A stretch of 63,990 bases of DNA, counting the filler. It is 4 parts of 4 records of this genome, joined end to end, with 100 filler letters (N's around TTAATTAATTAA, not from the genome) between each part and the next. Parts side by side here need not be neighbours in the genome. Positions count along the whole stretch, not along the records: positions 19,040 to 34,805 come from SRR31156797_2470; 3 more parts are not named here. One strand, written 5' to 3'. The notes beneath the pieces were generated by a model, which saw only the letters and a list, made by a program, of their open reading frames with translations, searched no databases and had not been told where the DNA came from. How positions within the stretch are numbered: position 1 is the stretch's first letter; each line of letters starts with the position of its first letter. Made by a program: the position numbers and the translations under genes. Below, piece by piece: positions 14,756 to 34,905 of the stretch.

Positions 14756-14783
14756 GCAGAGAGGGTCGCAAGCAGGAAGTTTT

Positions 14784-15706: not shown

Positions 15707-15725
15707 ATAATTGCTTCAATTATAT

Positions 15726-15920: not shown

Positions 15921-16760
15921 ATGTCTGTACTGAAGTTTCTAATTAGTAAAAGGTTTCTGATTCATATTGCCTCAGCGTTGGGGTTAATTGCATTTATATT
16001 AATTGCCACTTTTGTTACCTTAAATATTTATACGCATCATGGTGAAAGCTTTGAAACGCCAGATTTTTCAGGTCTAACAGAACGACAATTTATAGACTTG
16101 GTGCGACAAAAAGATTTAAGATACAGGATTATTGATTCGGTACATATAAGTGATATGACACCAGGCGCTGTAGTAGAGCAAACTCCTAAACCGGGTAATT
16201 TGGTTAAAGAAAACAGGACTATATTTTTTACTATTAATGCCTATTCTGCCGAACAGGTTCCAATGCCTAAATTAATGGATTTTTCATTACGAAATGCGCA
16301 GGTTACACTGGAGTCTTATGGTTTAAGAGTAGGGCAGCTAATTTATATTCCATCAGAATATACGCAGTTGATTTTAGGTCAACATTATGAGGGGAAACCA
16401 ATTGAGCCAGGAACTTTAATAGCCAAAGGATCTACTATTGATTTATTGGTGGGGCAGGGATTAAGTAATAAAAAAACTGAAGTGCCTGATTTGATTGGAA
16501 TGACGCTGGAAGATGCTCGTAATTATTTATTAGCTAATTCATTAAATATTGATGCCATCATATACGATGATAGCATTCCAACACCGGAAGATAGCTTGAG
16601 AGCTTTTGTTTGGAAGCAGTTGCCGGAAAGTGAAATAGGAAAAAAATTACAATTAGGATCTTCATTAGATATTTGGTTAACGATAGATTCTTTTAAAATA
16701 ATGCCCGATACTTTGATGGTAGATTCATTAGGGGTGGATTTAAATGTAGTAAACCAGTAA
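15921..16760 (+). CDS. PASTA domain-containing protein
   Basis: N-terminal TM helix and three PASTA-like repeats (PDFSGLT, MPKLMD, VPDLIGMT). Confidence 0.88.
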   Translation: MSVLKFLISKRFLIHIASALGLIAFILIATFVTLNIYTHHGESFETPDFSGLTERQFIDLVRQKDLRYRIIDSVHISDMTPGAVVEQTPKPGNLVKENRTIFFTINAYSAEQVPMPKLMDFSLRNAQVTLESYGLRVGQLIYIPSEYTQLILGQHYEGKPIEPGTLIAKGSTIDLLVGQGLSNKKTEVPDLIGMTLEDARNYLLANSLNIDAIIYDDSIPTPEDSLRAFVWKQLPESEIGKKLQLGSSLDIWLTIDSFKIMPDTLMVDSLGVDLNVVNQ

Positions 16761-16761
16761 G

Positions 16762-17817
16762 ATGACTGAGGAAAAGGATAAAAGAGAAGAGTTAGAGGAG
16801 TTGGGGGATGAGCAAAACGAAATGTTTGAGCATTTTAGATTTGTGACAGATGCTGGTCAGAAACAGATTCGAATAGATAAGTTTTTGGTGAATAGGATGG
16901 AGAACGCTTCTCGTAATAAAATTCAGGAAGCAGCTTCAGCTGGAAATATTTTGGTGGATGGTAATCCGGTTAAGTCTAACTATAAAATTAAGCCCAACGA
17001 AATCATAACGATTGTTATGGAATTTCCTCGTAGGGAACTTAAAATTATTCCGGAAGATATTCCTTTAAATATTCATTATGAAGATGATCACCTGATTGTA
17101 GTGAATAAAAATCCTGGTATGGTTGTACATCCGGGGCATGGAAATTATTCAGGAACCTTAGTGAATGCATTAGCTTATCATTTGAAAGATTTGCCTCTTT
17201 TTAATGATAATGATCCTCGTCCGGGTTTGGTGCATCGCATTGATAAAGATACATCCGGATTACTGGTTGTAGCCAAAACAGAGCAAGCTAAAAATAAATT
17301 GGCAGCACAGTTTTTTGATAAAACTACAGAGCGTTCATATATTGCATTGGTTTGGGGTAATCTTGAAGAAGATGAGGGTACGATTACCGGGCATATTGGT
17401 CGAAGTGTAAAAGATAGAATGCAGATGTGCGTATATCCGGAAGGCGATCATGGAAAGCATGCTGTTACGCATTATAAAGTGTTGGAAAGATTGGGTTATG
17501 TGACTTTGGTTCAGTGTGTATTGGAAACAGGAAGAACGCATCAGATACGTGCCCATATGAAATATATTGGTCATACATTATTTAATGATCAGCGATATGG
17601 AGGTGATCAGATTTTAAAGGGAACGACCTTTTCGAAGTATAAGCAGTTTGTTCAAAATTGTTTTAACGTATTGCCTCGTCAGGCTTTACATGCCAAATCA
17701 TTAGGTTTTGTTCATCCACATACTGGAGAAAAAATGAGTTTTGATACGGAAATCCCACAGGATATGACTGATGTGATTGAAAAGTGGAGAGTTTATATTG
17801 CAAATAGAGAAATGTAA
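16762..17817 (+). CDS. rluD: RluA/RluD-family pseudouridine synthase
   Basis: S4 domain RIDKFL, VNKNPGMVVHP, catalytic HRIDKDTSG and GRTHQIR. Confidence 0.9.
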   Translation: MTEEKDKREELEELGDEQNEMFEHFRFVTDAGQKQIRIDKFLVNRMENASRNKIQEAASAGNILVDGNPVKSNYKIKPNEIITIVMEFPRRELKIIPEDIPLNIHYEDDHLIVVNKNPGMVVHPGHGNYSGTLVNALAYHLKDLPLFNDNDPRPGLVHRIDKDTSGLLVVAKTEQAKNKLAAQFFDKTTERSYIALVWGNLEEDEGTITGHIGRSVKDRMQMCVYPEGDHGKHAVTHYKVLERLGYVTLVQCVLETGRTHQIRAHMKYIGHTLFNDQRYGGDQILKGTTFSKYKQFVQNCFNVLPRQALHAKSLGFVHPHTGEKMSFDTEIPQDMTDVIEKWRVYIANREM

Positions 17818-17868
17818 TTTACTTGCAGTTTAGATCTTATATTATCAAAAAGAAAAAATAAACACGGC

Positions 17869-18846
17869 ATGTCTAAAAAAAATATCGCAGTTGTATACGG
17901 AGGAGATTCTTCTGAAATAGTTGTGTCCAGAAAGAGTGCACAAGGTGTTCTTTCATTTATAGACAAAGATAAATATAATACATATCCGGTATTGCTGACC
18001 ACAGAGAAGTGGGTGGCAGAAGTCAATAATCAAGAGTATTCCATTAATAAAGATGATTTCTCATTTCAGTTGGAAGGAGAGAAAATTGATTTTGCTTGTG
18101 CTTACATAACTATTCATGGTACGCCGGGTGAAGATGGTAAACTGCAAGGGTATTTTGATATGGTAGGCATGCCTTACTCCACATGTGGTGTTTTACCGGC
18201 TGCGCTTACATTTAATAAGTTTGCTTGTAATACATATCTCAAAGGATTTGGTGTTTCGGTAGCTGACTCCTTATTGATAAGAAAAGGGACAGAGTATAAT
18301 GTAGACAGAATATTGGATACGCTTGGTTTACCTTGTTTTATTAAACCTAATGCCGGAGGTTCAAGTTTTGGTGTAACAAAGGCAAAGAAGATTGCCGAGA
18401 TTGGTTTTGCAATTGAAAAAGCTTTTAAAGAGAGTGACGAGGTTATTATTGAGCAGTTTATAGATGGTAAAGAATTTACTTGCGGATTGTATAAGGCAGG
18501 AGGCAAAGAAACTGTATTTCCCGTTACAGAAGTGATTCCGGCCAATGAATTCTTTGATTTTGAGGCTAAGTATACTGCTGAAAAAGCGCAGGAAATAACA
18601 CCAGCCAGATTATCTAAAGAAAATACAGACAGGATACAAAAAATATCATCTATGATTTATGATATTCTTGGATGTAAAGGGATTGTACGTGTGGATTATA
18701 TCTTAAAGGATAATAATATTTATTTACTAGAGGTGAATACAACGCCAGGTATGACAACGACAAGTTTTATACCTCAGCAAATTGCAGCAGCAAATTTAGA
18801 TATTATGGAAGTATTTACAGATATTCTGGAAAGCTCGATAAGTTAG
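17869..18846 (+). CDS. ddl: D-alanine--D-alanine ligase
   Basis: GGDSSE..VS, IHGTPGEDGKLQG, GSSFGV, FDFEAKY and LEVNTTPGMT. Confidence 0.95.
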   Translation: MSKKNIAVVYGGDSSEIVVSRKSAQGVLSFIDKDKYNTYPVLLTTEKWVAEVNNQEYSINKDDFSFQLEGEKIDFACAYITIHGTPGEDGKLQGYFDMVGMPYSTCGVLPAALTFNKFACNTYLKGFGVSVADSLLIRKGTEYNVDRILDTLGLPCFIKPNAGGSSFGVTKAKKIAEIGFAIEKAFKESDEVIIEQFIDGKEFTCGLYKAGGKETVFPVTEVIPANEFFDFEAKYTAEKAQEITPARLSKENTDRIQKISSMIYDILGCKGIVRVDYILKDNNIYLLEVNTTPGMTTTSFIPQQIAAANLDIMEVFTDILESSIS

Positions 18847-18866
18847 TATGATTGAAAATATAAAAA

Positions 18867-18900
18867 GAAAGCGTGGTCAAATACTGGCCACGCTTTTTTC
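18867..18900 (+). terminator. Rho-independent terminator after ddl
   Basis: AAAGCGTGGTCA-aatac-TGGCCACGCTTT stem-loop with a T tail. Confidence 0.82.
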
Positions 18901-18939
18901 ATTATATGAATGTCTAGTCCTGAAATAACGTTACATAAA

Positions 18940-19039
18940 NNNNNNNNNNNNNNNNNNNNNNNNNNNNNNNNNNNNNNNNNNNNTTAATTAATTAANNNNN
19001 NNNNNNNNNNNNNNNNNNNNNNNNNNNNNNNNNNNNNNN
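18940..19039. other. Artificial contig linker
   Basis: 44 N + TTAATTAATTAA + 44 N. Confidence 0.98.
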
Positions 19040-19465
19040 ATAACTATCTACTAGATATGCTATTTGCTGAAATGTGAAGAATGATATTGCTAATGGTAAT
19101 AGTAAGTTTAGTGGTTCTATTTTTAAATCTATTATTAAATTCAAACTCTCTATAAGAAAATCTGCGTATTTAAAGTATCCTAATAATGATAAATTTGCTA
19201 CTATTCCAAAGGTTAATATTGATTTTTTATTAAAACTATTTTTATGCTCTTTTTTTGCTAAGCTATTTCCTATTACATAGTTAAACAACATACTACTTAA
19301 TATTATTGGCAAATATACTACATTCCACCAAGAATAAAAGAACAAACTTGCAAATACTAAAAAACCTTTTGCTCCTAATACTAATCTTTTACTATTTAGG
19401 TAAAAATATACAAAAAATACTATTGGTAAAAATGCAAATATAAATTCATAGGAGTTGAAAAGCAT
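19040..19465 (-). CDS. MBOAT-family O-acyltransferase (AlgI/PatA-like), 3' truncated
   Basis: MLFNSYEFIFAFLP, ASLFFYSWW, LGYFKY and LPLAISFFTFQQIAYLVD. Confidence 0.9.
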
Positions 19466-19471
19466 ACTAAT

Positions 19472-19567
19472 TTACATCCAACTTTTTAAATATTTATTTA
19501 ACAATTTATAATTACTTGCAAACTGTAGACTTTCTAAAGTTGCTGTTTTTTCTTCCTTTACTTGCAT
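19472..19567 (-). CDS. Small 31-aa ORF or gene remnant (MQVKEEKTATLESLQFASNYKLLNKYLKSWM)
   Basis: ATG-TAA frame that nearly fills the gap between the methyltransferase and the MBOAT gene; no recognisable motif. Confidence 0.25.
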   Translation of the reverse strand: MQVKEEKTATLESLQFASNYKLLNKYLKSWM

Positions 19568-19568
19568 A

Positions 19569-20306
19569 TCAATTCCTAATAATATGGTTTTTTTCAATAG
19601 TTATACCAATATTATGTCCAACTAACTTTCTAATCCAATCTGGCAAATACTTTTCTAAGAACTTAAGTCTATATGGTAGAGCTACATAATTATTCATTAT
19701 ATTAAACTTATCTTTTTCTAATGAGATAACACGATTTACCAAATCTTTAAATTCTTTTTTAGTAAAAAACTTTCCATCTTCAATCATCATATCATATTCA
19801 CTCATTCCATCTTTAATCATTTTCTTTTTTCGTCTCCATCCTGGATAAGAGTTTATACAAGGTACATCTAAACTTAAAAACCTTTTACTGATTCTATATT
19901 GTTCTTTAAATGCTTGTTCATATTCTGGCATATGTTCAATTACACCCCAACTATAAACAAAATCAAAATACTCATCATCTAATGGGATATCTCTAGTATC
20001 TGCTTTTATAACTTCAATCTCATATTTTTTTCCAATAACTATTGCTTCGTCTGTTAAATCTATACCATACAACCTTAAATCTGGTCTATATGCTTTAATT
20101 AATAATAGCCATTGACAGTTTCCACTCCCTACTTCACATACACTTGCATTTGGTTCTAGTTTATCAAGAAAAGGTTTTATAAAATATTTAAATTTAAATG
20201 GTGTTACCGTGTCTGTAATATCTAGTCCTACAATACTATTTCTCCACAAATCTCCCCAATATTCATTAATATCTTGTTCATATTTTTTTGATTCTACTTC
20301 CAGCAT
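19569..20306 (-). CDS. Class I SAM-dependent methyltransferase
   Basis: VCEVGSGN motif I, YGIDL, ADTRDIP and FDFVYSWGVIEH. Confidence 0.88.
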   Translation of the reverse strand: MLEVESKKYEQDINEYWGDLWRNSIVGLDITDTVTPFKFKYFIKPFLDKLEPNASVCEVGSGNCQWLLLIKAYRPDLRLYGIDLTDEAIVIGKKYEIEVIKADTRDIPLDDEYFDFVYSWGVIEHMPEYEQAFKEQYRISKRFLSLDVPCINSYPGWRRKKKMIKDGMSEYDMMIEDGKFFTKKEFKDLVNRVISLEKDKFNIMNNYVALPYRLKFLEKYLPDWIRKLVGHNIGITIEKNHIIRN

Positions 20307-21601
20307 ACACCTTCCTTACTACAACTAATATTTCCTTTATATTTTGATAGTTCATAAAATATATGTTCATCTGTGAGTAATAAATCCAAATCATCATAAT
20401 AAGGTTCATTGTTACCTAGTATTATTAGTTCTGAATTATTAATTACATCTTCCAAATCATCCGTTATCTTATCTTTTAATGTACCTAACTCAGACAGAAT
20501 AAAACCTTCATTTACTTTATTTTTAATTGATGAATAAACTTCTTTATCATGGATGATAATTTCTACCCCATCTTTTTCCAATAACTTTGCTAATGCTAAA
20601 TTTGGACTTAACCTGACATCATCAGTACCACTTTTAAAACTCACTCCTAAAAGTGCAATTTTTTTCTTTCTATACTGTTTTATATGATTATATGCAACTT
20701 CCACTTGGTGCTTATTAGAGTTCTCTATTGAGCTTAATAAAGGAGTAGTTATTTCTAAACTCTTTGCCAAAGATACAAAACCTTTTAAATCTTTTGGCAA
20801 ACATGAACCACCATAGGCAAAACCTGGCTTTAAGTAATAAGGAGAAAGATTAAGTTTTGTATCTTTGCAAAAAATATCCATAGTTTCATAGGCATCTATA
20901 CCAAGAGTTTTACATATATTTCCAACTTCATTTGCAAATGTGATTTTAACAGCATGCCAAGAGTTATTTATATATTTTATTATCTCAGCTGACTCTATTG
21001 ATGTTACCATAAACTCATCTTTTATATCACTATATAGTTCTTTCATCATATTTGCAGCTTTAGAATTGTCTTCATCTACTCCCACAACAGTTACTTGAGG
21101 ATTATAATAGTCTTTTACCGCACTTCCTTCTCTTAAAAACTCAGGATTTGACACAACATCAAAATCTACACCTCTTTTTTTTAAAGAATATTCTTCTATT
21201 ATCTCACCCACTCTTTTGTTGGTATTAGGTGAAACTGTACTTCGAATAGAAATAACATGAAAAGTATCTTTTTCTTTTAATGCTAAACCAATATTTTTTG
21301 CAACATTTTCTACATAATCTAAATTTAGCAAACCATCTTGTTTATTTGGTGTACCTACACAAATAATTGATATATCAGAGTTTGTTACAGATTCCAAGAT
21401 ATCTGTTGTAGCAGAAATATTTTCTTTATTTTTGTATATAAGTATATCTATATCTTTTTCTACAATTGTAGGTTTAGCATTATTAACTAGATTAACTTTA
21501 TTTTTGTCAACATCTACACCTATTACAGTATGTCCACTATTTGCTAGACATCCTATACTTACACAACCTACATAACCTAATCCTATTACTGACACATTCA
21601 T
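20294..21601 (-). CDS. GDP-mannose 6-dehydrogenase-like (AlgD-type) nucleotide-sugar dehydrogenase
   Basis: GLGYVGCV..GCLA, ICVGTP, NPEFLREG and LNLSPYYLKPGFAYGGSCLPKD, which resemble AlgD more than Ugd; ManC is in the same locus. Confidence 0.8.
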   Translation of the reverse strand: MNVSVIGLGYVGCVSIGCLANSGHTVIGVDVDKNKVNLVNNAKPTIVEKDIDILIYKNKENISATTDILESVTNSDISIICVGTPNKQDGLLNLDYVENVAKNIGLALKEKDTFHVISIRSTVSPNTNKRVGEIIEEYSLKKRGVDFDVVSNPEFLREGSAVKDYYNPQVTVVGVDEDNSKAANMMKELYSDIKDEFMVTSIESAEIIKYINNSWHAVKITFANEVGNICKTLGIDAYETMDIFCKDTKLNLSPYYLKPGFAYGGSCLPKDLKGFVSLAKSLEITTPLLSSIENSNKHQVEVAYNHIKQYRKKKIALLGVSFKSGTDDVRLSPNLALAKLLEKDGVEIIIHDKEVYSSIKNKVNEGFILSELGTLKDKITDDLEDVINNSELIILGNNEPYYDDLDLLLTDEHIFYELSKYKGNISCSKEGVCWK

Positions 21602-22353
21602 TTATCTTTAGTTTCCTTTTTTATTTCATAGTATTTTAGTCCAACAAATAATTCTTCACTTGCCCAAGCAAAACAATATAAAAATCCAATACTGCCCTGT
21701 TTAAATCTTTTTTCACCTATATATCTTTGAAAAAAAACATACAACGATATTAGTGGCTGTCGAATACATAATTTACCTATAGAATAGTCTCGCCCTTCAC
21801 TTATCCATTTTTTAGCTTTCCATGTTGAGTATTTATTTATATCATTAATAAAATCATTCATTCCAAACCAAGAGTGATGCAATAAATCACCTTTTAGAAA
21901 TCCCATCTCTTCACTTATAACTTCATGAATAGCATCTTTCCATTGTAAATTTTTTTTCATTAAAATTGGTCTATCAAGTTTAGAAGGAGAATATCCTGCA
22001 ATATTTTCATTTAATCTTTGACAGTTGTAAGCAAGATATCTTGGATTTTTTAACTCAAATAAAATATTCTCTTTTAACTCCTCAGTAATCTCTTCATCTG
22101 AATCTATTACGATTACCCAATCATTTGAACACTTAGTCAAAGAAAAATTTCTTTGAGCAGCAAAATCACTGTCAAGTTTTCTTTGATATATTTTTGCTTT
22201 ATTTGTTAAAGAGTTTATTATTTCAACTGTGTCATCTGTACTATAATCGTCTATGATAATAATCTCTTCTACAAAATCATTTATTGAGCTTATTGTTTTA
22301 GCAATACTATCTTTATTGTTATGAACTAATATTGTTACAGAAAGTTTATTCAT
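21598..22353 (-). CDS. Family 2 glycosyltransferase (WaaE/KdtX-like)
   Basis: IIIDDYSTDDT, FAAQRNF, IDSDE and IHE motifs. Confidence 0.88.
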   Translation of the reverse strand: MNKLSVTILVHNNKDSIAKTISSINDFVEEIIIIDDYSTDDTVEIINSLTNKAKIYQRKLDSDFAAQRNFSLTKCSNDWVIVIDSDEEITEELKENILFELKNPRYLAYNCQRLNENIAGYSPSKLDRPILMKKNLQWKDAIHEVISEEMGFLKGDLLHHSWFGMNDFINDINKYSTWKAKKWISEGRDYSIGKLCIRQPLISLYVFFQRYIGEKRFKQGSIGFLYCFAWASEELFVGLKYYEIKKETKDK

Positions 22354-23591
22354 CTGTTTAATCCTAAAACTTTAATTAATTTTTTTGGTATTTTTTTGTA
22401 ATTTCTTATGATATGTAAGAAGTTGTTTTTATTTAAAACTTGCTTTAAATGAGAAATTATATGTTTAAAGCTTATACTTCTACTATTCTTATACTTTTCA
22501 ATATATTTTTTGAAATCATTAGGAATATCTTCATACATTAATAGAGTAGGATTATTTTCAATATAATCATTTTCTAAGTCATAATACTCAATTAGTTTAT
22601 CAATATTATCCTGATAGATATACTTTTTTCTATCTTGTGTTACACACATAAATTGATGAAAAGTAGTTTTTGATGGTTGTTTAACTGCTGCATTACCTGC
22701 ATTTATAGAAAAAACATATTCTTGTTTAGGCTTACTTAATAAGTTGAGTTCTGGCTTATTTAATTTATCACTTAATTTAAACTTATCAACAAATGTAAAA
22801 AATAGTTCCCTTAATGTACAAGGATTTTTGAACTCATACTTTTCTATATCAGGACCTATAATATTACACAAAACCCTTGCTTTAAGCTCTTTAGAGTTTA
22901 AAGACCATAAAGACTCATCATCTCCTTTGTCTTTGAAAACACTACTATCTACTGTCATACCATGGTCTGAGATCAAGATTAAATAATCTTTTTCTTCATT
23001 AAACCTAATAGCATGTAAATTTGATTGTAATTTATTTGCATGCTCTACTATTAGAGTTTCATATTCATCGGAAGTTAAAGTATACTTGCCTTTAGAGTAT
23101 TGAGCATTTTGATCATGTGTATAAAAATCATGGATTGTTACAAATGTATCTTTCTCATTATCTATTCCAAAATAACTATCAAATTCTTCATCTATTTTTA
23201 AATTTGCTAAATCATAATTTTCAAAATCATAAATAACTTTTTCAAATCCATCTTGAATAACTCCAGGGTTGTGCATATAGTTATTTGAGAAATAATGTGT
23301 TTTAAAACCTTTTTGTTTAAATAAAGATGGGATTGTTTTACTTCTATCATAATCTAATAAATTACAATTTCTAGCAATTGATACTTTACTATGATGATGT
23401 CTTAATCCTGTCATAAAAGAGTAAAATGAACTTTGAGTATTGTCAAAACCATAACAATACTTTGAACTAAATCCTTTTTTATACAGTTCGTCTAAATAAG
23501 TTAGTGGAATATCTTTATTTATATTGTCATTATTATATGAACGAACTTTTAATGCACTTACTCCATCCATAATATAAAAAATCACTCTCAT
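22350..23591 (-). CDS. Alkaline phosphatase/sulfatase superfamily hydrolase/transferase, soluble, Thr nucleophile
   Basis: VIFYIMDG (metal Asp), NTQSSFYSFMTG (nucleophile helix), HDFYTHD and ILISDHG; no signal peptide or TM segment. Confidence 0.78.
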   Translation of the reverse strand: MRVIFYIMDGVSALKVRSYNNDNINKDIPLTYLDELYKKGFSSKYCYGFDNTQSSFYSFMTGLRHHHSKVSIARNCNLLDYDRSKTIPSLFKQKGFKTHYFSNNYMHNPGVIQDGFEKVIYDFENYDLANLKIDEEFDSYFGIDNEKDTFVTIHDFYTHDQNAQYSKGKYTLTSDEYETLIVEHANKLQSNLHAIRFNEEKDYLILISDHGMTVDSSVFKDKGDDESLWSLNSKELKARVLCNIIGPDIEKYEFKNPCTLRELFFTFVDKFKLSDKLNKPELNLLSKPKQEYVFSINAGNAAVKQPSKTTFHQFMCVTQDRKKYIYQDNIDKLIEYYDLENDYIENNPTLLMYEDIPNDFKKYIEKYKNSRSISFKHIISHLKQVLNKNNFLHIIRNYKKIPKKLIKVLGLNR

Positions 23592-24880
23592 TAAAAAACC
23601 TTCTCAACATAGTAAATATTTAAACAAACTAATAATAAACCTGGAAGAATATATTTCATAGTATTTATTTGAGTATACTTTTTCATCTGATAACTTCGCA
23701 ATAGCCCTTGAAATATAAAAACAAGGGAGGTGGCATAAGCAACACCTTCATAACCTATTTCTTTTATGAATAAATAATTTAAAATAAAATTTAAAAATAA
23801 AATTAATATTGTATTTTGAAGAAGAATTTTACTATAACCAAAGTTATTTAATACTGAAGAAGACAATCCAAAAAGAAGGTCAAATACTTTTCCAATCATA
23901 AGTATAAAAAATATTTTTAAACTTTGTGAATAATCTCCAAAACTATTAAAAATTTCTTCTCCGAAACTCATAAATATAAGAAAAATAATTACCCAAACAA
24001 TTAACCCTATAAAAGAGATAACTTTATGTTCTTTTTGAATACTTGCAATATCATTATCTCTTTTATGTTTTATAAGCTTGGAAACAAATATAGGTTCTAT
24101 TACCATATTATAAATTGAAGCTATGAGAATAACTTTTATAGCTACTTGATATATAGCAACTTCCACATCTGTATAAAAATAACTAATCATAAAACTATCT
24201 ATACTTAAAATAAATGAGACTAAAAAAAGATTAAATACATTATTATATGCATGATTATATTTTAATGATTTTATCCCATTTTTTGTTGGTACTTGTTTTA
24301 GTTTTAATATATAAAATAAAGCAATACTAAAATAAGATAGAACAAATGCGCTAACTAGTATTGTAAGCTCACTTAGATTAGTTAGATAAAATAAACAAAC
24401 AAGAATTACTATATTTAAAAGTGGTCTTCCTATATTTGAAGGTAATAGTGATAAATTAATATTTTGCTGTATTTGATACCATCTAATAAAAATATCTACT
24501 AAAACCATAAATGGGATTGCAATAGATAGTAAGATTAAAAAATTACTTATATCACTACGAATAATCTCTGATATAAAACCTGCTGATAGGTTTAACGATA
24601 GTATTAATATGGCTGATGTTACTAATCCAATAAAAAATACTTGTTTGATTAATAGATTTAAATTTTTTGATCTAGTACTTTCATACAATAAAAATTCTGG
24701 CAAACCAAATCTTGCAAAAATAAAAAACATATTTAATATTGTCAAAGATAATGTATATTTACCTACTATATCTTGATTAACATTATTTGTAATCAGCCAA
24801 AAAGATAATAATCCACTAAAAGATAAAAATCCCTTTGAAATAAAAGATACAATTAATGAACTTTTGTATGATACATTCAT
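23591..24880 (-). CDS. wzx: Polysaccharide flippase (Wzx, MOP family)
   Basis: About 12 TM helices, ARFGL, VAIYQVA and LNYLFIKEIGYEGVAYAT; polysaccharide locus context. Confidence 0.82.
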   Translation of the reverse strand: MNVSYKSSLIVSFISKGFLSFSGLLSFWLITNNVNQDIVGKYTLSLTILNMFFIFARFGLPEFLLYESTRSKNLNLLIKQVFFIGLVTSAILILSLNLSAGFISEIIRSDISNFLILLSIAIPFMVLVDIFIRWYQIQQNINLSLLPSNIGRPLLNIVILVCLFYLTNLSELTILVSAFVLSYFSIALFYILKLKQVPTKNGIKSLKYNHAYNNVFNLFLVSFILSIDSFMISYFYTDVEVAIYQVAIKVILIASIYNMVIEPIFVSKLIKHKRDNDIASIQKEHKVISFIGLIVWVIIFLIFMSFGEEIFNSFGDYSQSLKIFFILMIGKVFDLLFGLSSSVLNNFGYSKILLQNTILILFLNFILNYLFIKEIGYEGVAYATSLVFIFQGLLRSYQMKKYTQINTMKYILPGLLLVCLNIYYVEKVF

Positions 24881-25954
24881 TTATATACTTACCAAACTAT
24901 TATTTGCTCTTTGATTATTTGACAAAGAATTCTTTAATTCTAAAAACTCTTTTTCATTTATATTATAATCACTAAATTTTGTAGATATATTCAATTCTTC
25001 CAACATTTTTCTTAAGTTATTTGAACTAAGTTCTCCAAAAATCTCTGTTAAAGCTTTATCAATAAATTGATATTTCCCTATAATATTATCAATAAGCATT
25101 GAAAGAGTGAAGCTGCAAGCTATACCATGAGGTATTCCTTTATTTGATGTTATATAGTAACTCATAGCATGTGCTAATGCTGTTTGTGTATTTGAAAAAG
25201 CAAGTCCTGCATACATACAAGCTTTTAAAATTTGTTCTCTATACTCCAAGTTTTCCAAATCGTTTACTAGCAAGGTTAAATATTTCATAATTATTTTTGA
25301 AGATTTGATTGCATAATCTATCGTAATAGGATTCGCATTCTTATTCCAAATTGATTCAAGTGCATGAGATAAAGTATCAAGTCCAGTTTGAATTGTTACT
25401 TCTCTTGAAACACTTAAAGTTAAACTTGGATCATAAATTGCAGTTTCAGAAAATAGTTCAGGAAGATGTAAGGAGTATTTTTTCTTTTCATTCATATCCC
25501 AAATAGTTGCCCAAGGAGTTAGTTCACTTCCTGTTCCTGCTGTTGTGGGTACTGAAATAATTGGTACAGAACTATAGTTTTCTTTTGGTACATTTCCTTT
25601 TATCATATTTGTTACAAAACTTGCTTTTTTTGAAGTATGATAGATGCTAAAAAACTTTGAAGCATCAAGTACACTTCCTCCACCAATAGCTAGTATAAGC
25701 TCAAATTCATTTTTATGAATATCTTGATATGTTTTTTCTAAGTCTTTAAATTCCGGATGGGATTTAATATCTGTGTATACAGCTACTATGTTAACACTAA
25801 GGGATTTTATTCTATCTATTAAGCCTCTTTTTATAAAGCCATTTGAAGTAATTAGTATAGTTTTTCTACCATTTATATATTTTTTAATATTTTCGATTTC
25901 ATAATTCCCAAATACTACTTTAACTGGCATGTAATATAAAAAATTTTTATTCAT
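24881..25954 (-). CDS. Iron-containing alcohol dehydrogenase, probable phosphonoacetaldehyde reductase (PhpC/FomC-type)
   Basis: GGGSVLD, PTTAGTGSE, DTLSHALESIW, TALAHAMSY and PHG; clustered with pepM and ppd. Confidence 0.85.
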   Translation of the reverse strand: MNKNFLYYMPVKVVFGNYEIENIKKYINGRKTILITSNGFIKRGLIDRIKSLSVNIVAVYTDIKSHPEFKDLEKTYQDIHKNEFELILAIGGGSVLDASKFFSIYHTSKKASFVTNMIKGNVPKENYSSVPIISVPTTAGTGSELTPWATIWDMNEKKKYSLHLPELFSETAIYDPSLTLSVSREVTIQTGLDTLSHALESIWNKNANPITIDYAIKSSKIIMKYLTLLVNDLENLEYREQILKACMYAGLAFSNTQTALAHAMSYYITSNKGIPHGIACSFTLSMLIDNIIGKYQFIDKALTEIFGELSSNNLRKMLEELNISTKFSDYNINEKEFLELKNSLSNNQRANNSLVSI

Positions 25955-27043
25955 TTATACCCTCTCACTTTCTTTAACTTTTATTAATTGTATAGGTTCT
26001 TCATTCTCAATGTATTTGTAATTTCTTTTATAAACGACAAACATTACCATCAGTAGCATTCCTGGATGAGAAAAAATTTGTATACCCTTAATTGATAAAA
26101 TTAGAACAATAATCAATCCTATATAATCAATCTTATATCCATAAGTTCGTATTTTATTATGTATTTTTAGATAAAAAATATATAACAATATTGATCCAAG
26201 AATACCAAATTCAGCGAACAACCGCAATATATCAGAGCCACCATGATCAAATAATTCAACAAAATAATGTTCTTTTTTATACAAATATAAACTTTCTATC
26301 CCGGAACCAAAAAATAAACTAGACTTTATTTGCTCTAAATACAATATGTTTGACCAATACCTTCCACCATATGTTCCGTTATCTGGAGGAGATAATAATA
26401 AACCAATTTTTGATGCGACTATTTCATCATAGACAATATAAATTATAGGAATAAATATAATTATTACTAAATATCTAATATTTTTCTTCATTAATATAAG
26501 TGGAGCTAATGCTAATATGCTTGAACTTACTGTTGAAGCAAGTGAAAAAAATGGTATAAGAAAGTATCTGTAATGTAAATTCTGTCTTACAAAAAGAAAA
26601 ATCAAAAATACTATTAAATTTGCGTGAAGACCTTTTTCATTTTTTAAATATCTATTATCAACAATTCCTAACATCATTAGTATTATCTCAAAAAGTAAAA
26701 ATATAGTTATAAAGTTCGGCATTAACTTCGTTGTTCTTATTCTAAAAAGATAAAGAACCAAATATAACTGGATTGCAACTGTAATAAATATCATTAAAGG
26801 TCTAACATATCCTCGTATTAAAGTTAAACTATCAGTTTGATTATACAAATTTACACTAGAAGTAATTGCATAAATAAGAAAAAATAATAAAAATAAAACT
26901 GGTGTTTTAAATAAAATTTTACTAGAATAACTCAAATAAATAAATGATAAAAATATAACAACTGCTTTAAATGGTATAAATCCTATATTATAATCAATAA
27001 ATTGTGAGATAATCAATAAATTAAATACTATATATCCACTCAA
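25955..27043 (-). CDS. Putative O-antigen/EPS polymerase (Wzy-like)
   Basis: About 10 TM helices, a periplasmic loop with R..W...FFGSG...H...EFGILG; located in a wzx/wzz locus. Confidence 0.65.
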   Translation of the reverse strand: MSGYIVFNLLIISQFIDYNIGFIPFKAVVIFLSFIYLSYSSKILFKTPVLFLLFFLIYAITSSVNLYNQTDSLTLIRGYVRPLMIFITVAIQLYLVLYLFRIRTTKLMPNFITIFLLFEIILMMLGIVDNRYLKNEKGLHANLIVFLIFLFVRQNLHYRYFLIPFFSLASTVSSSILALAPLILMKKNIRYLVIIIFIPIIYIVYDEIVASKIGLLLSPPDNGTYGGRYWSNILYLEQIKSSLFFGSGIESLYLYKKEHYFVELFDHGGSDILRLFAEFGILGSILLYIFYLKIHNKIRTYGYKIDYIGLIIVLILSIKGIQIFSHPGMLLMVMFVVYKRNYKYIENEEPIQLIKVKESERV

Positions 27044-27086
27044 TTAAACCCTTTTTCAATTATATTATTATTTGTTTTTTTGATTA

Positions 27087-28157
27087 TTAAAATTTATTGA
27101 CTTTCACTACATCTAAAGGTGGTCTAGGAGTTTCATCATCAGTTCCGCACTTTACCTTGATAAAGTTTAAACCTTTTTCATTTGAAAAGTTTTCAAGCTC
27201 TTTAGAAAAATTATCAACTTCTATTATTGTTTTTGCTACTACATTAAAGCCTGAAGATTTAGCAATAGAAATATAATCTATATGTTTTTGATATGTATTC
27301 TGTCCACCAGTTGATTTATTTGATTCATTGTCAAATAAAATGTAAGTTAAATCTACCTCATCTTTATATCTACCAGCTGTAGTAAGTCCACCCATATGCA
27401 TAACAAACTCAGCATCACCACCACATACAATAACTTTTTTACCTGCTTTCGCAGCACCTAAACCAAGGCTTAATGCACCACCCATATTTCCTGCCATATA
27501 AAAATTATTAGTTTCTTTCATAAAAGTATACATCTCTCTTGCAGTATTTCCAGTAGTTCCTATAAAAAGAGTATCAGTATTCTTAAAATTTTCATTTAAA
27601 GATAATAAAAATTCACTTCTTGGTATAAACTCAGATAAATCAAGTTTATGTTCATTTAATAAATCTATTTTTGTAAAACTATCTTTTTTAATTATACAAA
27701 TTTTAGTTGTGTTGTTACATTCATTTATCTGAGTGATAGCATTTTGTATATTATCATTGTGCAAGACTGCATGTTCATATCCATATGATTCAATTAATGT
27801 TGGAAGTTCAGTAGCAAGATGCTGGTGTTGAATCTCACTATCACCTTCTTTATAGGTTCTCCAACTTGTTAAAATAGGGAAGAAAATTCCATAAGGTTTT
27901 AATAAACTTGTTATGCAAGAACCCATATTTGTGACACCAGATGATTGCACTATTACAATTGGATTTTTACCAGACATTTTAATTCCAGCTGCAATTGAAC
28001 AAGCAACAGATTCACTAGCACTTGGCAAATATTCAATATTTGGATTATTTATAGCTTCATTAATTAAATATTTTGCAAAGGAACAAGGAACTACACATAA
28101 ATGAGTATACCCCTCTTCTATCAGTCTTTCAATAAATAGCTTTGTATCTAAAGCCAT
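27087..28157 (-). CDS. aepY: Phosphonopyruvate decarboxylase (TPP-dependent)
   Basis: VVPCS, QSSG..N, WR...EIQH, FYMAGNMG, GGDAEF..HMG and STGGQ; directly downstream of PEP mutase. Confidence 0.88.
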   Translation of the reverse strand: MALDTKLFIERLIEEGYTHLCVVPCSFAKYLINEAINNPNIEYLPSASESVACSIAAGIKMSGKNPIVIVQSSGVTNMGSCITSLLKPYGIFFPILTSWRTYKEGDSEIQHQHLATELPTLIESYGYEHAVLHNDNIQNAITQINECNNTTKICIIKKDSFTKIDLLNEHKLDLSEFIPRSEFLLSLNENFKNTDTLFIGTTGNTAREMYTFMKETNNFYMAGNMGGALSLGLGAAKAGKKVIVCGGDAEFVMHMGGLTTAGRYKDEVDLTYILFDNESNKSTGGQNTYQKHIDYISIAKSSGFNVVAKTIIEVDNFSKELENFSNEKGLNFIKVKCGTDDETPRPPLDVVKVNKF

Positions 28158-29446
28158 TATTTTGTTCCTGGGATAAGATTTAATATCTCTTTGATAGAAA
28201 GAAGATTTTTTTCAGCTTCTAAACTTCTATCATTATCTAAAATTGATTTAGCTACATTCATCATTCCTGGGTAAGCAGCTCTAAGCATATGATTTGCATA
28301 AATTACTATATTTACTCCAGCTTTTCCTAATTTTTCTGCAGTAATCTCGTTATAAGATGTAGGAACTGCAACAATTGGAATATTTTCATCATATTCTCTT
28401 AATATTTTACAAAACTCTATTACTTCATCTGGGCTTTTTTGTCGTGAGTGAATCATAATACCATCTGCACCTGCTTCTATATATGCTTTTGCCCTTGAGA
28501 TAGCATCATCAATACCCTTTTCAAGAATTAAACTTTCAATCCTTGCAATAATCATAAAATCATCTGTTACTTGTGCTCTTTTCCCTGTTTGTATTTTTTG
28601 ACAAAAGTTTTCAATTGTGTCTTGAGTTTGAGCCACGTCATTACCAAATAATGAATTTTTCTTTAGACCAGTTTTATCTTCAATAATAACAGCACTAATT
28701 CCAGTTCTTTCTAATGTTCTTACAGTAAATGCAAAATGCTCTGCTATTCCACCAGTATCAGCATCATATATCATAGGCTTTGTAGTCACTTCAAAGATTT
28801 CATTTATGGTAGTTATTCTAGTACTAACATCAACAGCTTCTATATCTGGTTTCCCCTTTGATGTTGAATCAGTTAAAGAACTTGACCACATTCCATCATA
28901 TTCTATTCCTGTTTCTGACTTTACATTCTCTGTAATTAAACCACTTAAAGCATTATGAGTTTCTAAAATTCTTACAATAAATTTAGAGTCTATCAATCTT
29001 CTCAATCTACTTCTTCTTATATCAGGTGTCGTACCGAATTCTTTTAATGATTTATTTAATGCTGTTGAAGATATTCCATCTGTATATGAAGGTTCAACCA
29101 ATTTTCCTCCCCATTTTGATAAAGTATCAATTACTTGTTGTCTTGTTTTTGATTGAATACCTTCTTTCCAATCATCACCGTGAACTACTATATTTGGTTT
29201 TATAAGTTCAAGATTTTGTCTATAATCAAGTGTATCTTGAGGAATTACTTTTGTTACACCTTTTATGTTTTCTATTACTTCTTTTCTTTGTTCATAAGTC
29301 ATGTAAGGAAGTCTTTTGTAACTTGCAATAGCCTTATCAGTTAAAAGGCCTACAATAACTTCTCCATATTGTGCAGCAATTTTTAATATATTCATATGAC
29401 CAGGATGCACTAAATCAGCACTCATTCCAACATAAACCTTCATCAT
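28157..29446 (-). CDS. aepX: Phosphoenolpyruvate mutase with an N-terminal cytidylyltransferase domain
   Basis: PepM signature [10 protein letters not shown] (EDKx5NS), WSSS, DADTGG and ARIES. N-terminal HxGH cytidylyltransferase (ADLVHPGH...VVHGDDW...GISST). Confidence 0.95.
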
Positions 29447-29479
29447 TTTAAAATTCCTTTTTTATTAATTTAAAATAAA

Positions 29480-30856
29480 CTATTCTCTATTAAAGTCATC
29501 ATCAAGTCTTACAATATCATCTTCTCCAGTATACTCTCCAACTTGTGCTTCTATTATAATCAATGGCAATTTACCTTCATTTTCAAGTCGATGGACTTGC
29601 CCTGCTTTTATGTAAGTAGATTCATTTGGGTTTAAAGTAAAAATATTTTCTTCTACTGTTACACTAGCACAACCAGAGACAACAATCCAATGTTCATTTC
29701 TATGATAATGTTTTTGTAAACTCAATCTTTTTCCTGGTTTAACTTCAATTTTTTTTATTTTGTAGCCACTAGATTCTTGTAAGACAGTATAATTTCCCCA
29801 AGGGCGATACCCTGTCTTATGAATTTTAAACAATTCAGACTCTTCTTCTTCCAGTTTTTTTACTACTTTTTTCACTTTTTGAGAAGAGCCTTTTTTTGAT
29901 ATAAGTAAGGCATCATCTGTATCTATAATTATCAAGTCGTCTATATCAATAGTAGCAATTTTCCTATTTTCACTATAAATAAAATTATTTGAAGAATCTA
30001 TTGTAATTGAATTTTCATTTAAAGTGTTGTTATATTTATCTTTTCCTAACTCTTCGTAAAGAGAATCAAAACTACCAACATCAGACCAGTCAATTTCACT
30101 TGGAACAACTTTTACGATATTAGACTTTTCCATAACTGCATAATCAATACTATTTTCAGTTATTGCAATCATATCCTCATGTTTAATTCTAATCATTCCA
30201 TCTTTACTAGCGTTATTAAATGCTTTTAGACTTTGTTCATAGATATTAGAAGAATATTTTTTTAGTTCAGATAAAAAAACTTTTGCCTTAAACATAAACA
30301 TTCCACTATTCCAATAAAAATCACCTCTTTCTAAATATTTTTGTGCAGTTTCTAAATCAGGTTTTTCATAAAATGCTTTTACATCACTATCTGAATTTTC
30401 TATTTCGATATATCCATAACCTGTTTCAGGAGATGTAGGTTTAATCCCAAAAGTTACCAGATTATTCTCTTCTGCAAGTTTTTCAGCTTTTTTTAAAACA
30501 TTTAAGTATTCTATTTCGTTTTTTATTAAATGATCACTAGGTGTAATTAATACAATTTCTTCAGGATCAAGAGAAAAGCATGAAAGTGCAATTGCAGGAG
30601 CAGTATTTCTTCCCACAGGTTCTAACAAATATTTATTATCTTTTATATTAGATTCATCTAATTGGTCTAATGCTAAAAAATATTGCTCTGTATTTGAAAC
30701 AATAAATTGGCTATCACAAACTTTACAATTTCTTTCAACAGTTAATTGAAATAATGATTTTTTATTAAATAGTTTTACAAATTGTTTAGGCATTAGTGTA
30801 CGACTTATAGGCCAGAGTCTTGTTCCACTCCCTCCACATAAAATAATATTAGTCAT
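29480..30856 (-). CDS. manC: Mannose-1-phosphate guanylyltransferase / mannose-6-phosphate isomerase
   Basis: GGSGTRLWPISR..PKQF, EPVGRNTAPA, SIDYAVME and cupin RPWG...SLQKHYHRNEHW. Confidence 0.94.
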   Translation of the reverse strand: MTNIILCGGSGTRLWPISRTLMPKQFVKLFNKKSLFQLTVERNCKVCDSQFIVSNTEQYFLALDQLDESNIKDNKYLLEPVGRNTAPAIALSCFSLDPEEIVLITPSDHLIKNEIEYLNVLKKAEKLAEENNLVTFGIKPTSPETGYGYIEIENSDSDVKAFYEKPDLETAQKYLERGDFYWNSGMFMFKAKVFLSELKKYSSNIYEQSLKAFNNASKDGMIRIKHEDMIAITENSIDYAVMEKSNIVKVVPSEIDWSDVGSFDSLYEELGKDKYNNTLNENSITIDSSNNFIYSENRKIATIDIDDLIIIDTDDALLISKKGSSQKVKKVVKKLEEEESELFKIHKTGYRPWGNYTVLQESSGYKIKKIEVKPGKRLSLQKHYHRNEHWIVVSGCASVTVEENIFTLNPNESTYIKAGQVHRLENEGKLPLIIIEAQVGEYTGEDDIVRLDDDFNRE

Positions 30857-30859
30857 TTA

Positions 30860-32140
30860 TTACAACTTTTTATCAGTATCTTTTAAAATATTCTTGATAT
30901 CATAAATCACTGTATTAGTACTTAGTTTTATTTCAAGATATTTAAACTCATTATGTGCCACAGCTAATACAACTGCATTGTAAATACTTATATTTAATTT
31001 ATTTTGAAGTTCTAAAGAATACTCATTTTTCACTTGATCTTTGTCTGCCCATGGATCATATACATCTATATTACAGCCAAAAGCTTTTAACTCTTCTATT
31101 ACATCAATTACTCTTGAGTTTCTTATGTCTGGACAATTCTCTTTAAAAGTAATACCTAGAATCAAAACTTTACTACCTTCAATTTTATGTCCTTTTTTTA
31201 TCATCAATTTAATCACTTGATTAGCTACATATATTCCCATATAATCATTAATTCTTCTACCTGCTAAAATAATCTCTGGGTTGTAATTTACACTTTGTGC
31301 TTTATGTGTAAGGTAATATGGATCAACTCCTATACAATGTCCTCCCACAAGACCTGGTCTGAATGGTAAAAAGTTCCATTTTGTTCCAGCTGCTTCAAGC
31401 ACTGCATTTGTATCAATATTTAGTTTATTAAAAATCATAGCAAGTTCATTTACAAATGCAATATTTATATCTCTTTGAGAATTTTCAATTACTTTTGCTG
31501 CTTCTGCAACTTTTATTGTAGGTGCTAAATGTGTACCTGCTGTAATAATACTTGCATAAAGTTCATCTACTTTTTTACCTATTTCGGGAGTGCTTCCTGA
31601 AGTAACTTTTAATATTTTTGTTACAGTATGTTTTTTGTCTCCTGGATTGATTCTCTCTGGACTATATCCACAAAAGAAATCTTCATTAAATTTTAAACCA
31701 CTGTGTTTCTCTAATATTGGCACACAATCTTCCTCTGTTGCACCAGGATAAACTGTAGACTCATATATAACAATATCATCTCTTTTTAAAACTGTTCCTA
31801 CTGTTTCACTTGCTTTTATAAGAGGAGTTAAATCAGGTCTTTTATTTTTATCAATTGGTGTTGGTACAGTTATAATATAGATATTACAGTCTTTTATATC
31901 ATCAACATCTAAAGAAAACTTCATTTTATTTGACAGACATTCATTTACTTGTTCAGTAGACAATTCTTTAGTTCTATCTATACCTTTTCTTAATTCATCT
32001 ATTCTCCAATCTGAAATATCAAAACCAACTACCTTATACTTAAAAGAAAAAGCATGAGCTAAAGGAAGACCTACATAACCCAAACCTATTACAGCTATTT
32101 TACTATTTATCAATTTTAACTCCATTTTTATCGTATCCAA
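30860..32140 (-). CDS. UDP-N-acetylhexosamine 6-dehydrogenase (TviB/WbpO-type)
   Basis: [32 protein letters not shown] and [15 protein letters not shown]. The true start may be slightly downstream (32125 or 32113). Confidence 0.88.
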
Positions 32141-33188
32141 AAAAATCTAAATACCAATCTATAAATTTATTTACTCCATCTTGGACTGAGGTTGCAGGTT
32201 TATAATCTAGATCTTCAACAAGATCACTTACATCTGCATATGTTGCAGGAACATCACCTGGTTGGATAGGCATCATGTTTTTTTCTATATTTTTTCCTAA
32301 TTTATTCTCTATTGCTTTAATAAAATCCATTAATTTTACAGGGTTGTTATTTCCTATATTGTATATTTTATATGGTGCAGAAGAAGTAGAAGTTTCATGG
32401 TTCCAATTTGGATTTCTTTTTGGAGGATTATCTATTACTCTTATAACTCCCTCTACAATATCATCTACATAAGTAAAATCTCTTAACATCTCACCATTGT
32501 TAAAGACATCGATTTTTTTACCTTCTAGGGCTGCTTTAGTAAACAAAAAAAGTGCCATATCTGGTCTTCCCCAAGGTCCATATACAGTAAAAAATCTTAG
32601 CCCTGTTGTAGATATATCAAAAAGATGTGAATATGTATGAGCCATAAGTTCATTAGACTTTTTACTTGCAGCATAAAGTGAAATAGGATGGTCTACATTA
32701 TGTGAAGTAGAAAAAGGAAGTTCTTCATTTAATCCATATACTGAACTTGAACTTGCGTATGATAAGTTTTTTACTTCATTATGTCTACAAGCTTCAAGAA
32801 TATTCATAAAACCAATAATATTTGAATCCATATATGCATCTGGGTTTGTTAAAGAGTACCTAACTCCAGCTTGTGCTGCAAGATTACATACTGCATCAAA
32901 CTTTTCTTTTTGAAAAAGTTGCATTATTGCTTCTTTATCTTCAAGATTTAATTTTATAAATTTATAATTATTGTCAGAGGTAGAAGTTATTAACTTTCCA
33001 TAAGGTATATTTTCTCCATCTTTTAGACTACTTATAATACCACTTCTTTGAAGTCTTCCATATTTAACATTCTGGTCATAATAGTCATTCATATTATCCA
33101 AGCCAACTACTTTATTACCTCTCTCAAGAAGTTTTATTGCAAGGTGACTTCCGATAAAACCTGCTGTTCCCGTAACTAATATCTTCAT
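32103..33188 (-). CDS. NAD-dependent epimerase (UDP-glucuronate 4-epimerase-like)
   Basis: [23 protein letters not shown] and [15 protein letters not shown]. Confidence 0.9.
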
Positions 33189-33191
33189 ATA

Positions 33192-33791
33192 TTAATTTTC
33201 CTTTTTTATATTTCTAAAGAACTGAATAACAAAAATTAAAAATATTGATATTATCAATGATGAAATAAAAGAAACTACGATAATCAACTTTTTCTTCGGT
33301 TTATTTATTGGGTTCTTACTTATTTCTATATTTCCAATCATTTTTGAATCAATTATTTTATCATAATATTTAGTCTTTTCTTTATGCCTTTTAAGAGTAA
33401 AAGAGTAAACTTTTTCTAATGATTTTTTAATATAATCCTTCTCTTTATTTTTAATCAGAACTTCTACTAGATTATTAGTTCTTTTAGGTATATTAATAGC
33501 TATTTCATTTGAAAGTCTATTTTTTATAATAATTTCTTTTAAGTTATATGGATTATCTATTATTGTTGCTTCGTTATACTTATTAAGAACTTCACCTATT
33601 TCAATAAGCATCTTACCTTGATAAATAGGAGTATAATTTTTTATATTAACATATAGTGCAGTAATTGATGTTACTATAAAAACAATAATTAGGATAAAAA
33701 CTTTTTTATTCCAAATTGTTTCAAATAATTCTCTTAAATCTATTTCATCTTCATGCATTGCGTCTTTAGTCCTGATTATTTTGTTTTTCAT
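33192..33791 (-). CDS. wzz: Wzz/FepE-type chain-length determinant
   Basis: EDEIDLRELF..IW, two TM helices and C-terminal PINKPKKKLII. Confidence 0.85.
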   Translation of the reverse strand: MKNKIIRTKDAMHEDEIDLRELFETIWNKKVFILIIVFIVTSITALYVNIKNYTPIYQGKMLIEIGEVLNKYNEATIIDNPYNLKEIIIKNRLSNEIAINIPKRTNNLVEVLIKNKEKDYIKKSLEKVYSFTLKRHKEKTKYYDKIIDSKMIGNIEISKNPINKPKKKLIIVVSFISSLIISIFLIFVIQFFRNIKKEN

Positions 33792-34805: not shown

Positions 34806-34905
34806 NNNNNNNNNNNNNNNNNNNNNNNNNNNNNNNNNNNNNNNNNNNNTTAATTAATTAANNNNNNNNNNNNNNNNNNNNNNNNNNNNNNNNNNNNNNN
34901 NNNNN
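34806..34905. other. Artificial contig linker
   Basis: 44 N + TTAATTAATTAA + 44 N. Confidence 0.98.

Follow-up and report, generated by a model that had tools for sequence, protein, structure and literature searches.

The stretch of DNA analysed here (63,990 bases, hereafter the window) carries, on the third of its four contigs, what we consider, with a probability of about three in four, to be the 5' part of an Arcobacteraceae-like Wzx/Wzy surface-polysaccharide locus (O-antigen or capsule) with an acquired Fom1-type cassette that would make 2-hydroxyethylphosphonate (HEP) activated with cytidine monophosphate (CMP-HEP). From family assignments and synteny, we propose that PepM would convert phosphoenolpyruvate (PEP) to phosphonopyruvate, that Ppd would convert the latter to phosphonoacetaldehyde, that a PhpC-type iron-dependent alcohol dehydrogenase (Fe-ADH) would turn this into HEP, and that the N-terminal cytidylyltransferase (CT) domain of the PepM protein would activate HEP to CMP-HEP. 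Still in the cytoplasm, a sugar of the glycan would then receive HEP from CMP-HEP as an ester on one of its hydroxyl groups.

A script check confirmed that N-spacers join the four contigs. Each spacer reads 44 N, TTAATTAATTAA, 44 N, and they occupy window positions 9118-9217, 18940-19039 and 34806-34905; genes on the two sides of a spacer are therefore not genomic neighbours. The locus contig (window 19040-34805; 15.8 kb, guanine-plus-cytosine (GC) content 0.269) contains 14 open reading frames (ORFs), all on the minus strand, which span positions 33791 down to 19040 with intergenic gaps of -38 to +103 nt (33 nt or less at 11 of the 13 junctions). ORF calls and family models returned the gene order and identities given in the initial annotation, including the co-directional and tightly packed arrangement. 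At the 5' side, a 368-nt spacer is followed by an HDOD-domain gene open to the other contig end, so that this border of the locus is visible, while the 3' side is cut within a gene for a membrane-bound O-acyltransferase (MBOAT) by the contig end at 19040, the N-spacers marking the contig borders. The initial annotation had the locus reaching this end and, on account of the single visible glycosyltransferase, probably continuing past it; both statements are borne out, since there is one family 2 glycosyltransferase (GT2) and the last gene is incomplete.

The phosphonate cassette

The gene at 28157-29446 (minus strand, as for every locus gene given below) codes for CT-PepM, a Fom1-like bifunctional protein of 429 amino acids with a cytidylyltransferase at residues 4-136 and a PEP mutase at residues 144-429. 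The protein scores 410.5 bits against the PEP-mutase equivalog TIGR02320 (cut-off 319.55) and possesses, at residue 256, the EDKxxxxxNS motif, which is defined as Ppm-specific in PMC6697681. This sequence evidence identifies PepM as a genuine PEP mutase. The CT domain matches PF01467 (54.7 bits), with HPGH at residue 14 and GISST at residue 124, and aligns to the solved chain 5x3d with an E-value of 2e-57 and 89 of 133 residues identical (~67%, counted from the printed alignment). This 160 amino acid chain is named 'phosphoenolpyruvate phosphomutase' in the structure-search listing, and we take it to be the HEP-cytidylyltransferase (CyTase) domain of Fom1. The Fom1 CyTase is described as forming CMP-HEP from HEP and cytidine triphosphate, and PF01467-Ppm fusions as representing 23.6% of Ppm proteins (Rice et al., PMC6697681).

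One genome per species was scanned with the CT-PepM protein, which resulted in 80 loci with relatives of 63-89% identity. The next cassette gene, ppd (27087-28157), has TIGR03297 as its best family, and its product is 63-76% identical (median ~72%) to that of the gene after CT-PepM in 23 close loci, mostly of Campylobacterota. It contains thiamine pyrophosphate (TPP) domains. The TPP-binding motif is GDG-X(24-27)-N; Ppd has no GDG, and a GDA...FDNESN variant was seen, by eye only, at about residues 247-281. We labelled this protein because of synteny, a relative being present in 74 of the 80 loci, and not because of the family model. The Fe-ADH (24881-25954), a putative phosphonoacetaldehyde reductase, is 53-75% identical (mostly 63-75%) to the product of the gene after Ppd in 21 close loci, again mostly of Campylobacterota. 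Its best family match, TIGR03405, and synteny (68 of 80 loci) are the reasons for calling it PhpC-like. The cassette genes alternate with wzy and wzx at a spacing of 0-43 nt, in one operon.

An aminotransferase ORF is absent from the 15.8-kb locus contig, and ORF and family scans of that contig also revealed no MpnS/HEPD-like, radical S-adenosylmethionine (radical-SAM) or ATP-grasp gene. Together with the families found in the cassette, these absences make HEP, in the form of CMP-HEP, the best reading, and CMP-HEP is the likely product. The same route from PEP through HEP to CMP-HEP had been put forward in the initial annotation; it gains support from the PepM model, the match of the CT domain to 5x3d, the best families of Ppd and Fe-ADH, and synteny, and the accompanying remark that no aminotransferase was visible holds for the locus contig. 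Methylphosphonate was rejected as a product for want of an MpnS-like gene, and a fosfomycin-like product for want of Fom3 or Fom4.

It is improbable that the end product is another phosphonate, whether 2-aminoethylphosphonate (AEP), made with an aminotransferase encoded elsewhere, or HEP that is O-methylated or otherwise modified. Such a product would fit with a class I methyltransferase in the locus, with the view of the genome being confined to a single contig of 15.8 kb, and with the survey in PMC8942020, in which AEP ranks first among phosphonate decorations (56% of neighbourhoods). However, the operon has a dedicated PhpC-type reductase and the contig has no aminotransferase, MpnS/HEPD-like or radical-SAM gene. 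In addition, the CT domain is of the Fom1 type (PF01467) and not of the PntC type (PF12804), which is reported to prefer AEP (PMC6697681).

We consider it very improbable indeed that CMP-HEP feeds a diffusible small-molecule phosphonate and that the sugar genes are coincidental neighbours. Fosfomycin biosynthesis starts with the same three enzymes (PMC6697681, PMC8942020), and Fom1, Fom2 and FomC of the early steps in Streptomyces wedmorensis have the same CyTase-PepM architecture and the same chemistry up to CMP-HEP. Unlike the fosfomycin cluster, with its radical-SAM methyltransferase Fom3, FomD and Fom4, the window locus yielded none of these three in family scans, and no late genes of the Fom3, Fom4, HEPD or ATP-grasp type occur in it. 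The interleaving of the cassette with wzy and wzx in one closely spaced operon, and the glycan and teichoic-type transferases found in related loci, likewise speak against a small molecule. CMP-HEP would thus differ in its role, being probably a glycan donor here and a transient intermediate in the fosfomycin pathway.

Some results tell against our reading of the locus as a whole. Ppd scores 195.6 bits against TIGR03297, under the cut-off of 312.5, with the beta subunit of sulfopyruvate decarboxylase as the runner-up family at 101 bits (95 bits behind). Likewise, Fe-ADH scores 342.5 bits against TIGR03405, under the cut-off of 423.7, the next family being at 167.7. The candidate Wzy polymerase matches the Pfam family Wzy_C only weakly, at an E-value of 0.41. 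Finally, the 15.8-kb contig, cut at 19040, has no initiating phosphoglycosyltransferase and one GT2 only; the locus is therefore incomplete.

The cassette in other genomes

Clustering of the ORFs from the 80 loci, many of which belong to Campylobacterota, including metagenome-assembled genomes (MAGs), placed PepM in 77, a Ppd relative in 74 and an Fe-ADH relative in 68. The three loci missing from the PepM cluster are attributable to crude ORF calling in high-GC DNA. Across the clustered loci CT-PepM, Ppd and Fe-ADH follow one another in near-constant order with fixed spacing. In a quick tree, CT-PepM of the window is sister to that of locus L001, from the Arcobacter sp. BM504 MAG (G001), with a Shimodaira-Hasegawa-like approximate likelihood ratio (SH-aLRT) support of 93, in a 27-row group made up mostly of Campylobacterota.

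A PepM phylogeny and a neighbourhood comparison had been proposed in the initial annotation, which had regarded the locus as without a characterised counterpart in Arcobacteraceae. The two analyses group the window PepM with Campylobacterota and reveal the cassette to be common, so the impression of rarity does not extend to the cassette. HEP-type neighbourhoods represent 8.5% of the 434 analysed by Li and Horsman (PMC8942020), including those of Helicobacter cinaedi and Campylobacter jejuni, which are of the PhpC type. The cassette is already known and common; the window locus differs in the position of wzy within the triad, in the lack of a LicD or TagF-like gene, and in its one unusual part, a rare alkaline-phosphatase (AP)-superfamily protein, P0002.

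The closest relatives illustrate these differences. The L001 proteins are 89% (CT-PepM), 76% (Ppd) and 69% (Fe-ADH) identical to those of the window, and in L001, as in the other nearest Campylobacterota relatives L004, L007, L010, L014 and L029, licD lies directly upstream of the CT-PepM gene. Unlike these LicD-linked cassettes, which sit in NeuB/CMP-sugar (nonulosonic-acid) clusters, the window cassette is found in a Wzx/Wzy uronic-acid locus and has manC upstream of CT-PepM, no LicD, a wzy gene interrupting the triad, and P0002. In L001 (1-13428), L009, L010, L014 and L029 the block of LicD, CT-PepM, Ppd and Fe-ADH stands beside NeuB, a CMP-sugar synthetase-like protein, a DegT aminotransferase and an adenosine monophosphate (AMP)-binding enzyme. 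This hints that HEP is carried on a nonulosonic acid glycan in those relatives.

Glycomyces sp. NRRL B-16210 and Stackebrandtia are given as sources of HEP-phosphonoglycans (PMC8942020 and PMC13576164, citing Yu 2014). The Glycomyces locus (L034) encodes a CT-PepM fusion that is 66% identical to that of the window, followed in the same order by relatives of Ppd and Fe-ADH. However, it belongs to a different phylum, and identity to the window proteins falls to 26-28% for Ppd and Fe-ADH. Its product is HEP on an exopolysaccharide, whereas the window locus, whose product is predicted, has its cassette split by wzy.

P0002 and the predicted transfer of HEP

P0002 (22350-23591) is a soluble, Thr-nucleophile protein of 413 amino acids, encoded after wzx with a 1-nt overlap, and was recognized by a weak match to PF00884 (22.6 bits, under the cut-off of 25) and by its fold. 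It has no transmembrane (TM) or other hydrophobic segment and no signal peptide, and is therefore cytoplasmic. An AlphaFold2 model was obtained with a mean pLDDT of 75 and a pTM of 0.80. When this model was submitted to Foldseek, S1 sulfatases were the top matches (TM-score ~0.57), with BT1596 (5g2u) among them. Thr52, in the sequence T52-Q-S-S-F, aligned with the nucleophile Cys in S-C-V-P-A-R of the sulfatase 9koq. Formylglycine (S1) sulfatases carry the nucleophile motif C/S-x-P-x-R; P0002 lacks it, and a true sulfatase was ruled out. Four residues (H159, D160, D209 and H210) do not vary among 28 family members and three more (D9, T52 and D155) are conserved in at least 90% of them, the metal-binding Asp9 being located on the first beta-strand. 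Profiles built from the family (A1 and A2) gave marginal matches to solved sulfatases or phosphoethanolamine transferases, with a best E-value of 0.001; the subfamily of P0002 cannot, therefore, be named from sequence.

Thr-nucleophile PF00884 proteins include the phospho-alcohol transferases EptA/MCR-1, EptC and LtaS. P0002 shares with them the AP-superfamily fold, the Thr nucleophile and the conserved D/T/DH metal ligands, and its profile matches the phosphoethanolamine transferases 6bnc and 5zzu weakly (E-values of 0.6-0.7). Unlike EptA, EptC and LtaS, it has no membrane domain, and its putative donor is a nucleotide rather than a lipid. We propose that P0002 would transfer HEP by way of a covalent phosphonyl-Thr52 intermediate to a sugar of the lipid-linked repeat, thereby replacing the LicD or TagF-like enzymes of related loci. 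It is a reasonable candidate for the HEP transferase, tentatively put forward and with a chance well short of even.

Transfer by a different enzyme, with the pathway to CMP-HEP as described, has a probability that we place a little under one half. HEP would in that case be handled by a LicD, a TagF-like or some other protein whose gene lies beyond the contig end or in another part of the genome, and P0002 would be another tailoring enzyme, such as a phosphodiesterase or a glycan sulfotransferase resembling Agl30 and Agl31. The position of licD in the nearest relatives points in this direction, as does the frequency of both families in loci with at least 5 kb of upstream and 7 kb of downstream sequence (n=52), where clustering placed LicD in 13, a TagF-like protein in 17, both in one, and neither in 23. 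The locus is, moreover, truncated, and the true HEP transferase may be encoded beyond 19040. On the other side, manC occupies the slot upstream of CT-PepM in the window, and a tblastn search of all 64 kb with 53 LicD, TagF-like and Wzx queries revealed no LicD or TagF-like homolog, the sole match being a spurious one inside ppd (E-value of 6e-4). Pfam scans of the 14 locus genes returned no LicD or TagF-like family either.

For the sulfotransferase version of this alternative, the model is provided by Agl30 (VNG1056C) and Agl31 (VNG1057C) of Halobacterium salinarum, sulfatase-fold proteins, each of which is reported to be needed to sulfate an N-glycan sugar (PMC11980604). Like P0002 they are encoded in glycan loci, and the likeness runs through a shared close structure rather than through aligned sequences: BT1596 (5g2u), which is near P0002, is also reported as the closest solved structure to Agl30 (PMC11980604). 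The richness of the locus in uronic acids would suit such an activity too. Agl30 and Agl31 add a group and do not remove one; no sulfate-activation genes were found on the contig, however, and a phosphonate donor is available next to P0002 instead.

Three domains are joined in P0049 (901 amino acids), a distant relative of P0002: a TagF-like glycerophosphotransferase, an AP domain akin to P0002, and a GT2. Since it fuses a P0002-related AP domain to a TagF-like one, the two functions can coexist, which again favours a separate HEP transferase.

In favour of P0002 as the transferase, Thr-type PF00884 genes repeatedly adjoin the cassette, with translationally coupled examples in phages. More distant PF00884 proteins are encoded near the cassette in seven of the 80 genome loci (raw count): directly after Fe-ADH in L062, L072 and L078, two genes on in L073, and farther away in L048, L066 and L028 (two copies). 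CT-PepM relatives are also encoded on 44 viral contigs, and in two of these 44 loci (raw count) a PF00884 ORF is found immediately upstream. In the phage locus L107 (4541-7287) a soluble Thr-type PF00884 ORF runs 4 nt into the start of CT-PepM, and in the viral locus L110 (4526-7275) a similar ORF stops ~25 nt before the match to CT-PepM begins. By hhalign to the P0002 family, the L078 domain reaches a probability of 93% with a Thr at the nucleophile position, L072 only 37% and L107 only 2%. In two Bacteroidota MAGs, L062 (13708-17109) and L028 (14824-21230), the PF00884 domain is fused to a YidC-like 60KD_IMP domain in a large protein; the fusion gene directly follows Fe-ADH in L062 and lies one gene further on in L028.

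The P0002 family is rare, with seven word-index matches among 5.8 billion proteins and, among 1.84 billion, 62 representatives at an E-value of 1e-3 or less and 36 at 1e-10 or less. The only genomic context recovered for it is a 2.5-kb metagenome contig (L082) on which wzx (59% identical) precedes the P0002 homolog (65% identical). A search of the five genomes behind the best loci gave no homolog.

The role proposed for P0002 has to be set against several findings. A search of 401 Campylobacterales genomes gave no credible match, the one hit containing stops (E-value of 9e-4), and profiles A1 and A2 have no match in the 44 viral loci and a single weak one (L078, E-value of 0.004) in the 80 genome loci. 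Proteins of the sulfatase fold can, besides, act as glycan sulfotransferases (PMC11980604). Furthermore, at least two of the 23 well-flanked loci scored as without LicD or TagF-like genes were misclassified: L032 has a fused TagF/Capsule_synth/LicD protein, and L039 shares its protein cluster (c76). The absence of these genes from a locus is therefore weak evidence. That P0002 is a phosphonyl transferase and represents a third, unrelated solution to HEP transfer beside LicD and TagF-like enzymes, with the Thr-type PF00884 proteins near CT-PepM in other bacteria and in phages acting alike, we regard as rather unlikely.

The glycan, the host and the meaning of the locus

The locus begins with a gene for a Wzz-like chain-length protein (33192-33791; PF02706, 34.4 bits with a cut-off of 25.5, and a weak GNVR match). 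This protein of 199 amino acids has a TM segment near either end (22-52 and 166-196), exposes ~110 residues to the periplasm and is far shorter than the usual chain-length determinants. It is followed by a short-chain dehydrogenase/reductase (SDR) of the uronate-type nucleotide-sugar 4-epimerases (32103-33188; PF01370, E-value of 4e-56), whose closest solved structures are 5u4q (1e-136) and 6zl6 (5e-44), the latter presumably a uridine diphosphate (UDP)-glucuronate 4-epimerase. Next come a TviB-type UDP-GlcNAc 6-dehydrogenase (30860-32140; NF011729, 594.8 bits with a cut-off of 592) and ManC, mannose-1-phosphate guanylyltransferase/mannose-6-phosphate isomerase (29480-30856; TIGR01479, 558.9 bits with a cut-off of 373). 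Beyond the first two cassette genes lies that of a polytopic membrane protein with ~9-10 hydrophobic segments (25955-27043). It is a candidate Wzy polymerase from its position and from an Atlas lead, Wzy_C clusters accounting for 20 of 30 Atlas feature matches with a score of 0.99. The Wzx flippase (23591-24880; PF01943, 37 bits with a cut-off of 28.2) is, like Wzz, over its family cut-off, whereas Wzy has the Atlas lead and the weak Pfam match.

Downstream of P0002 are the GT2, the only glycosyltransferase on the contig (21598-22353; PF00535, 76.8 bits), and an AlgD-like guanosine diphosphate (GDP)-mannose 6-dehydrogenase (20294-21601). The latter aligns over its full length (residues 1-434) to the GDP-mannose 6-dehydrogenase 1mfz, its closest solved structure, with an E-value of 1e-115, compared with 7e-61 for its best UDP-glucose dehydrogenase match. 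A class I SAM methyltransferase (19569-20306) has PF08241 and PF13649 domains and no NCBIfam model at or above cut-off. The last gene (19040-19465), interrupted where the contig stops, encodes the N-terminal 142 amino acids of the MBOAT O-acyltransferase. This fragment has no Pfam match itself and was identified by its 50% identity to residues 1-139 of a 508 amino acid protein (L025, 15922-17448) which is a PF03062 MBOAT (E-value of 3e-37); a check of the three remaining contigs did not find the C-terminal half of the gene.

The presence of TviB, the SDR epimerase, ManC and the AlgD-like enzyme supports a glycan with N-acetylglucos- or galactosaminuronic acid, (Glc/Gal)NAcA, and mannuronate, in agreement with the uronic-acid-rich polysaccharide of the initial annotation, for which TviB, the AlgD-like enzyme and ManC speak. 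In our model UDP-(Glc/Gal)NAcA would be supplied by TviB and the 4-epimerase, and GDP-mannuronate by ManC and the AlgD-like dehydrogenase. The GT2, along with transferases encoded beyond the contig end, would build a lipid-linked repeat, which the methyltransferase and the MBOAT protein would tailor. Wzx would then flip the repeat and Wzy polymerise it, the short Wzz setting chain length. Judging from the two tailoring genes, the glycan is possibly O-acylated and methylated.

Describing the locus contig as 'Arcobacteraceae-like' is reasonable from the HDOD relatives, LepA and the CT-PepM tree. LepA of contig 4 is 87% identical to those of the Arcobacter sp. BM504 MAG (G001) and UBA4036 (G003), and 82-87% identical to those of four of five Campylobacterota genomes, the fifth (G005) being at 71%. 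Among the same five genomes searched, relatives of the HDOD fragment on the locus contig (47% identical) occur only in G001 and G003. Contig 2 (window 9218-18939) looks foreign, with a GC content of 0.347 and with Tgt and Ddl only 46-49% and ~31% identical, respectively, to the same genomes; it may be bin contamination. Contig 4 encodes (window 48949-54880 and 59961-62171) an LssB-type ATP-binding cassette protein, an HlyD adaptor and a TolC-like protein, that is, type I secretion, as well as a LapD-like receptor for cyclic diguanylate, a set that suggests a Lap-type adhesin system.

Arcobacteraceae include food- and water-borne species, and a literature search found no paper on phosphonate and pepM in Arcobacter. 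As to the transfer of HEP or AEP after CMP activation, the search returned only the analogy to LicD drawn by Rice et al. (2019) and no literature after that year. A product has been isolated for only two HEP- or methylphosphonate-type clusters, as stated in PMC8942020. HEP esters are described as one of the main forms in which phosphorus occurs in high-molecular-weight dissolved organic matter of the sea (PMC8942020, PMC13576164). To the predicted carriers of HEP, the locus would add a Gram-negative Wzx/Wzy uronic-acid glycan from Arcobacteraceae, and P0002 would give the transfer step a concrete, testable candidate of unexpected fold.

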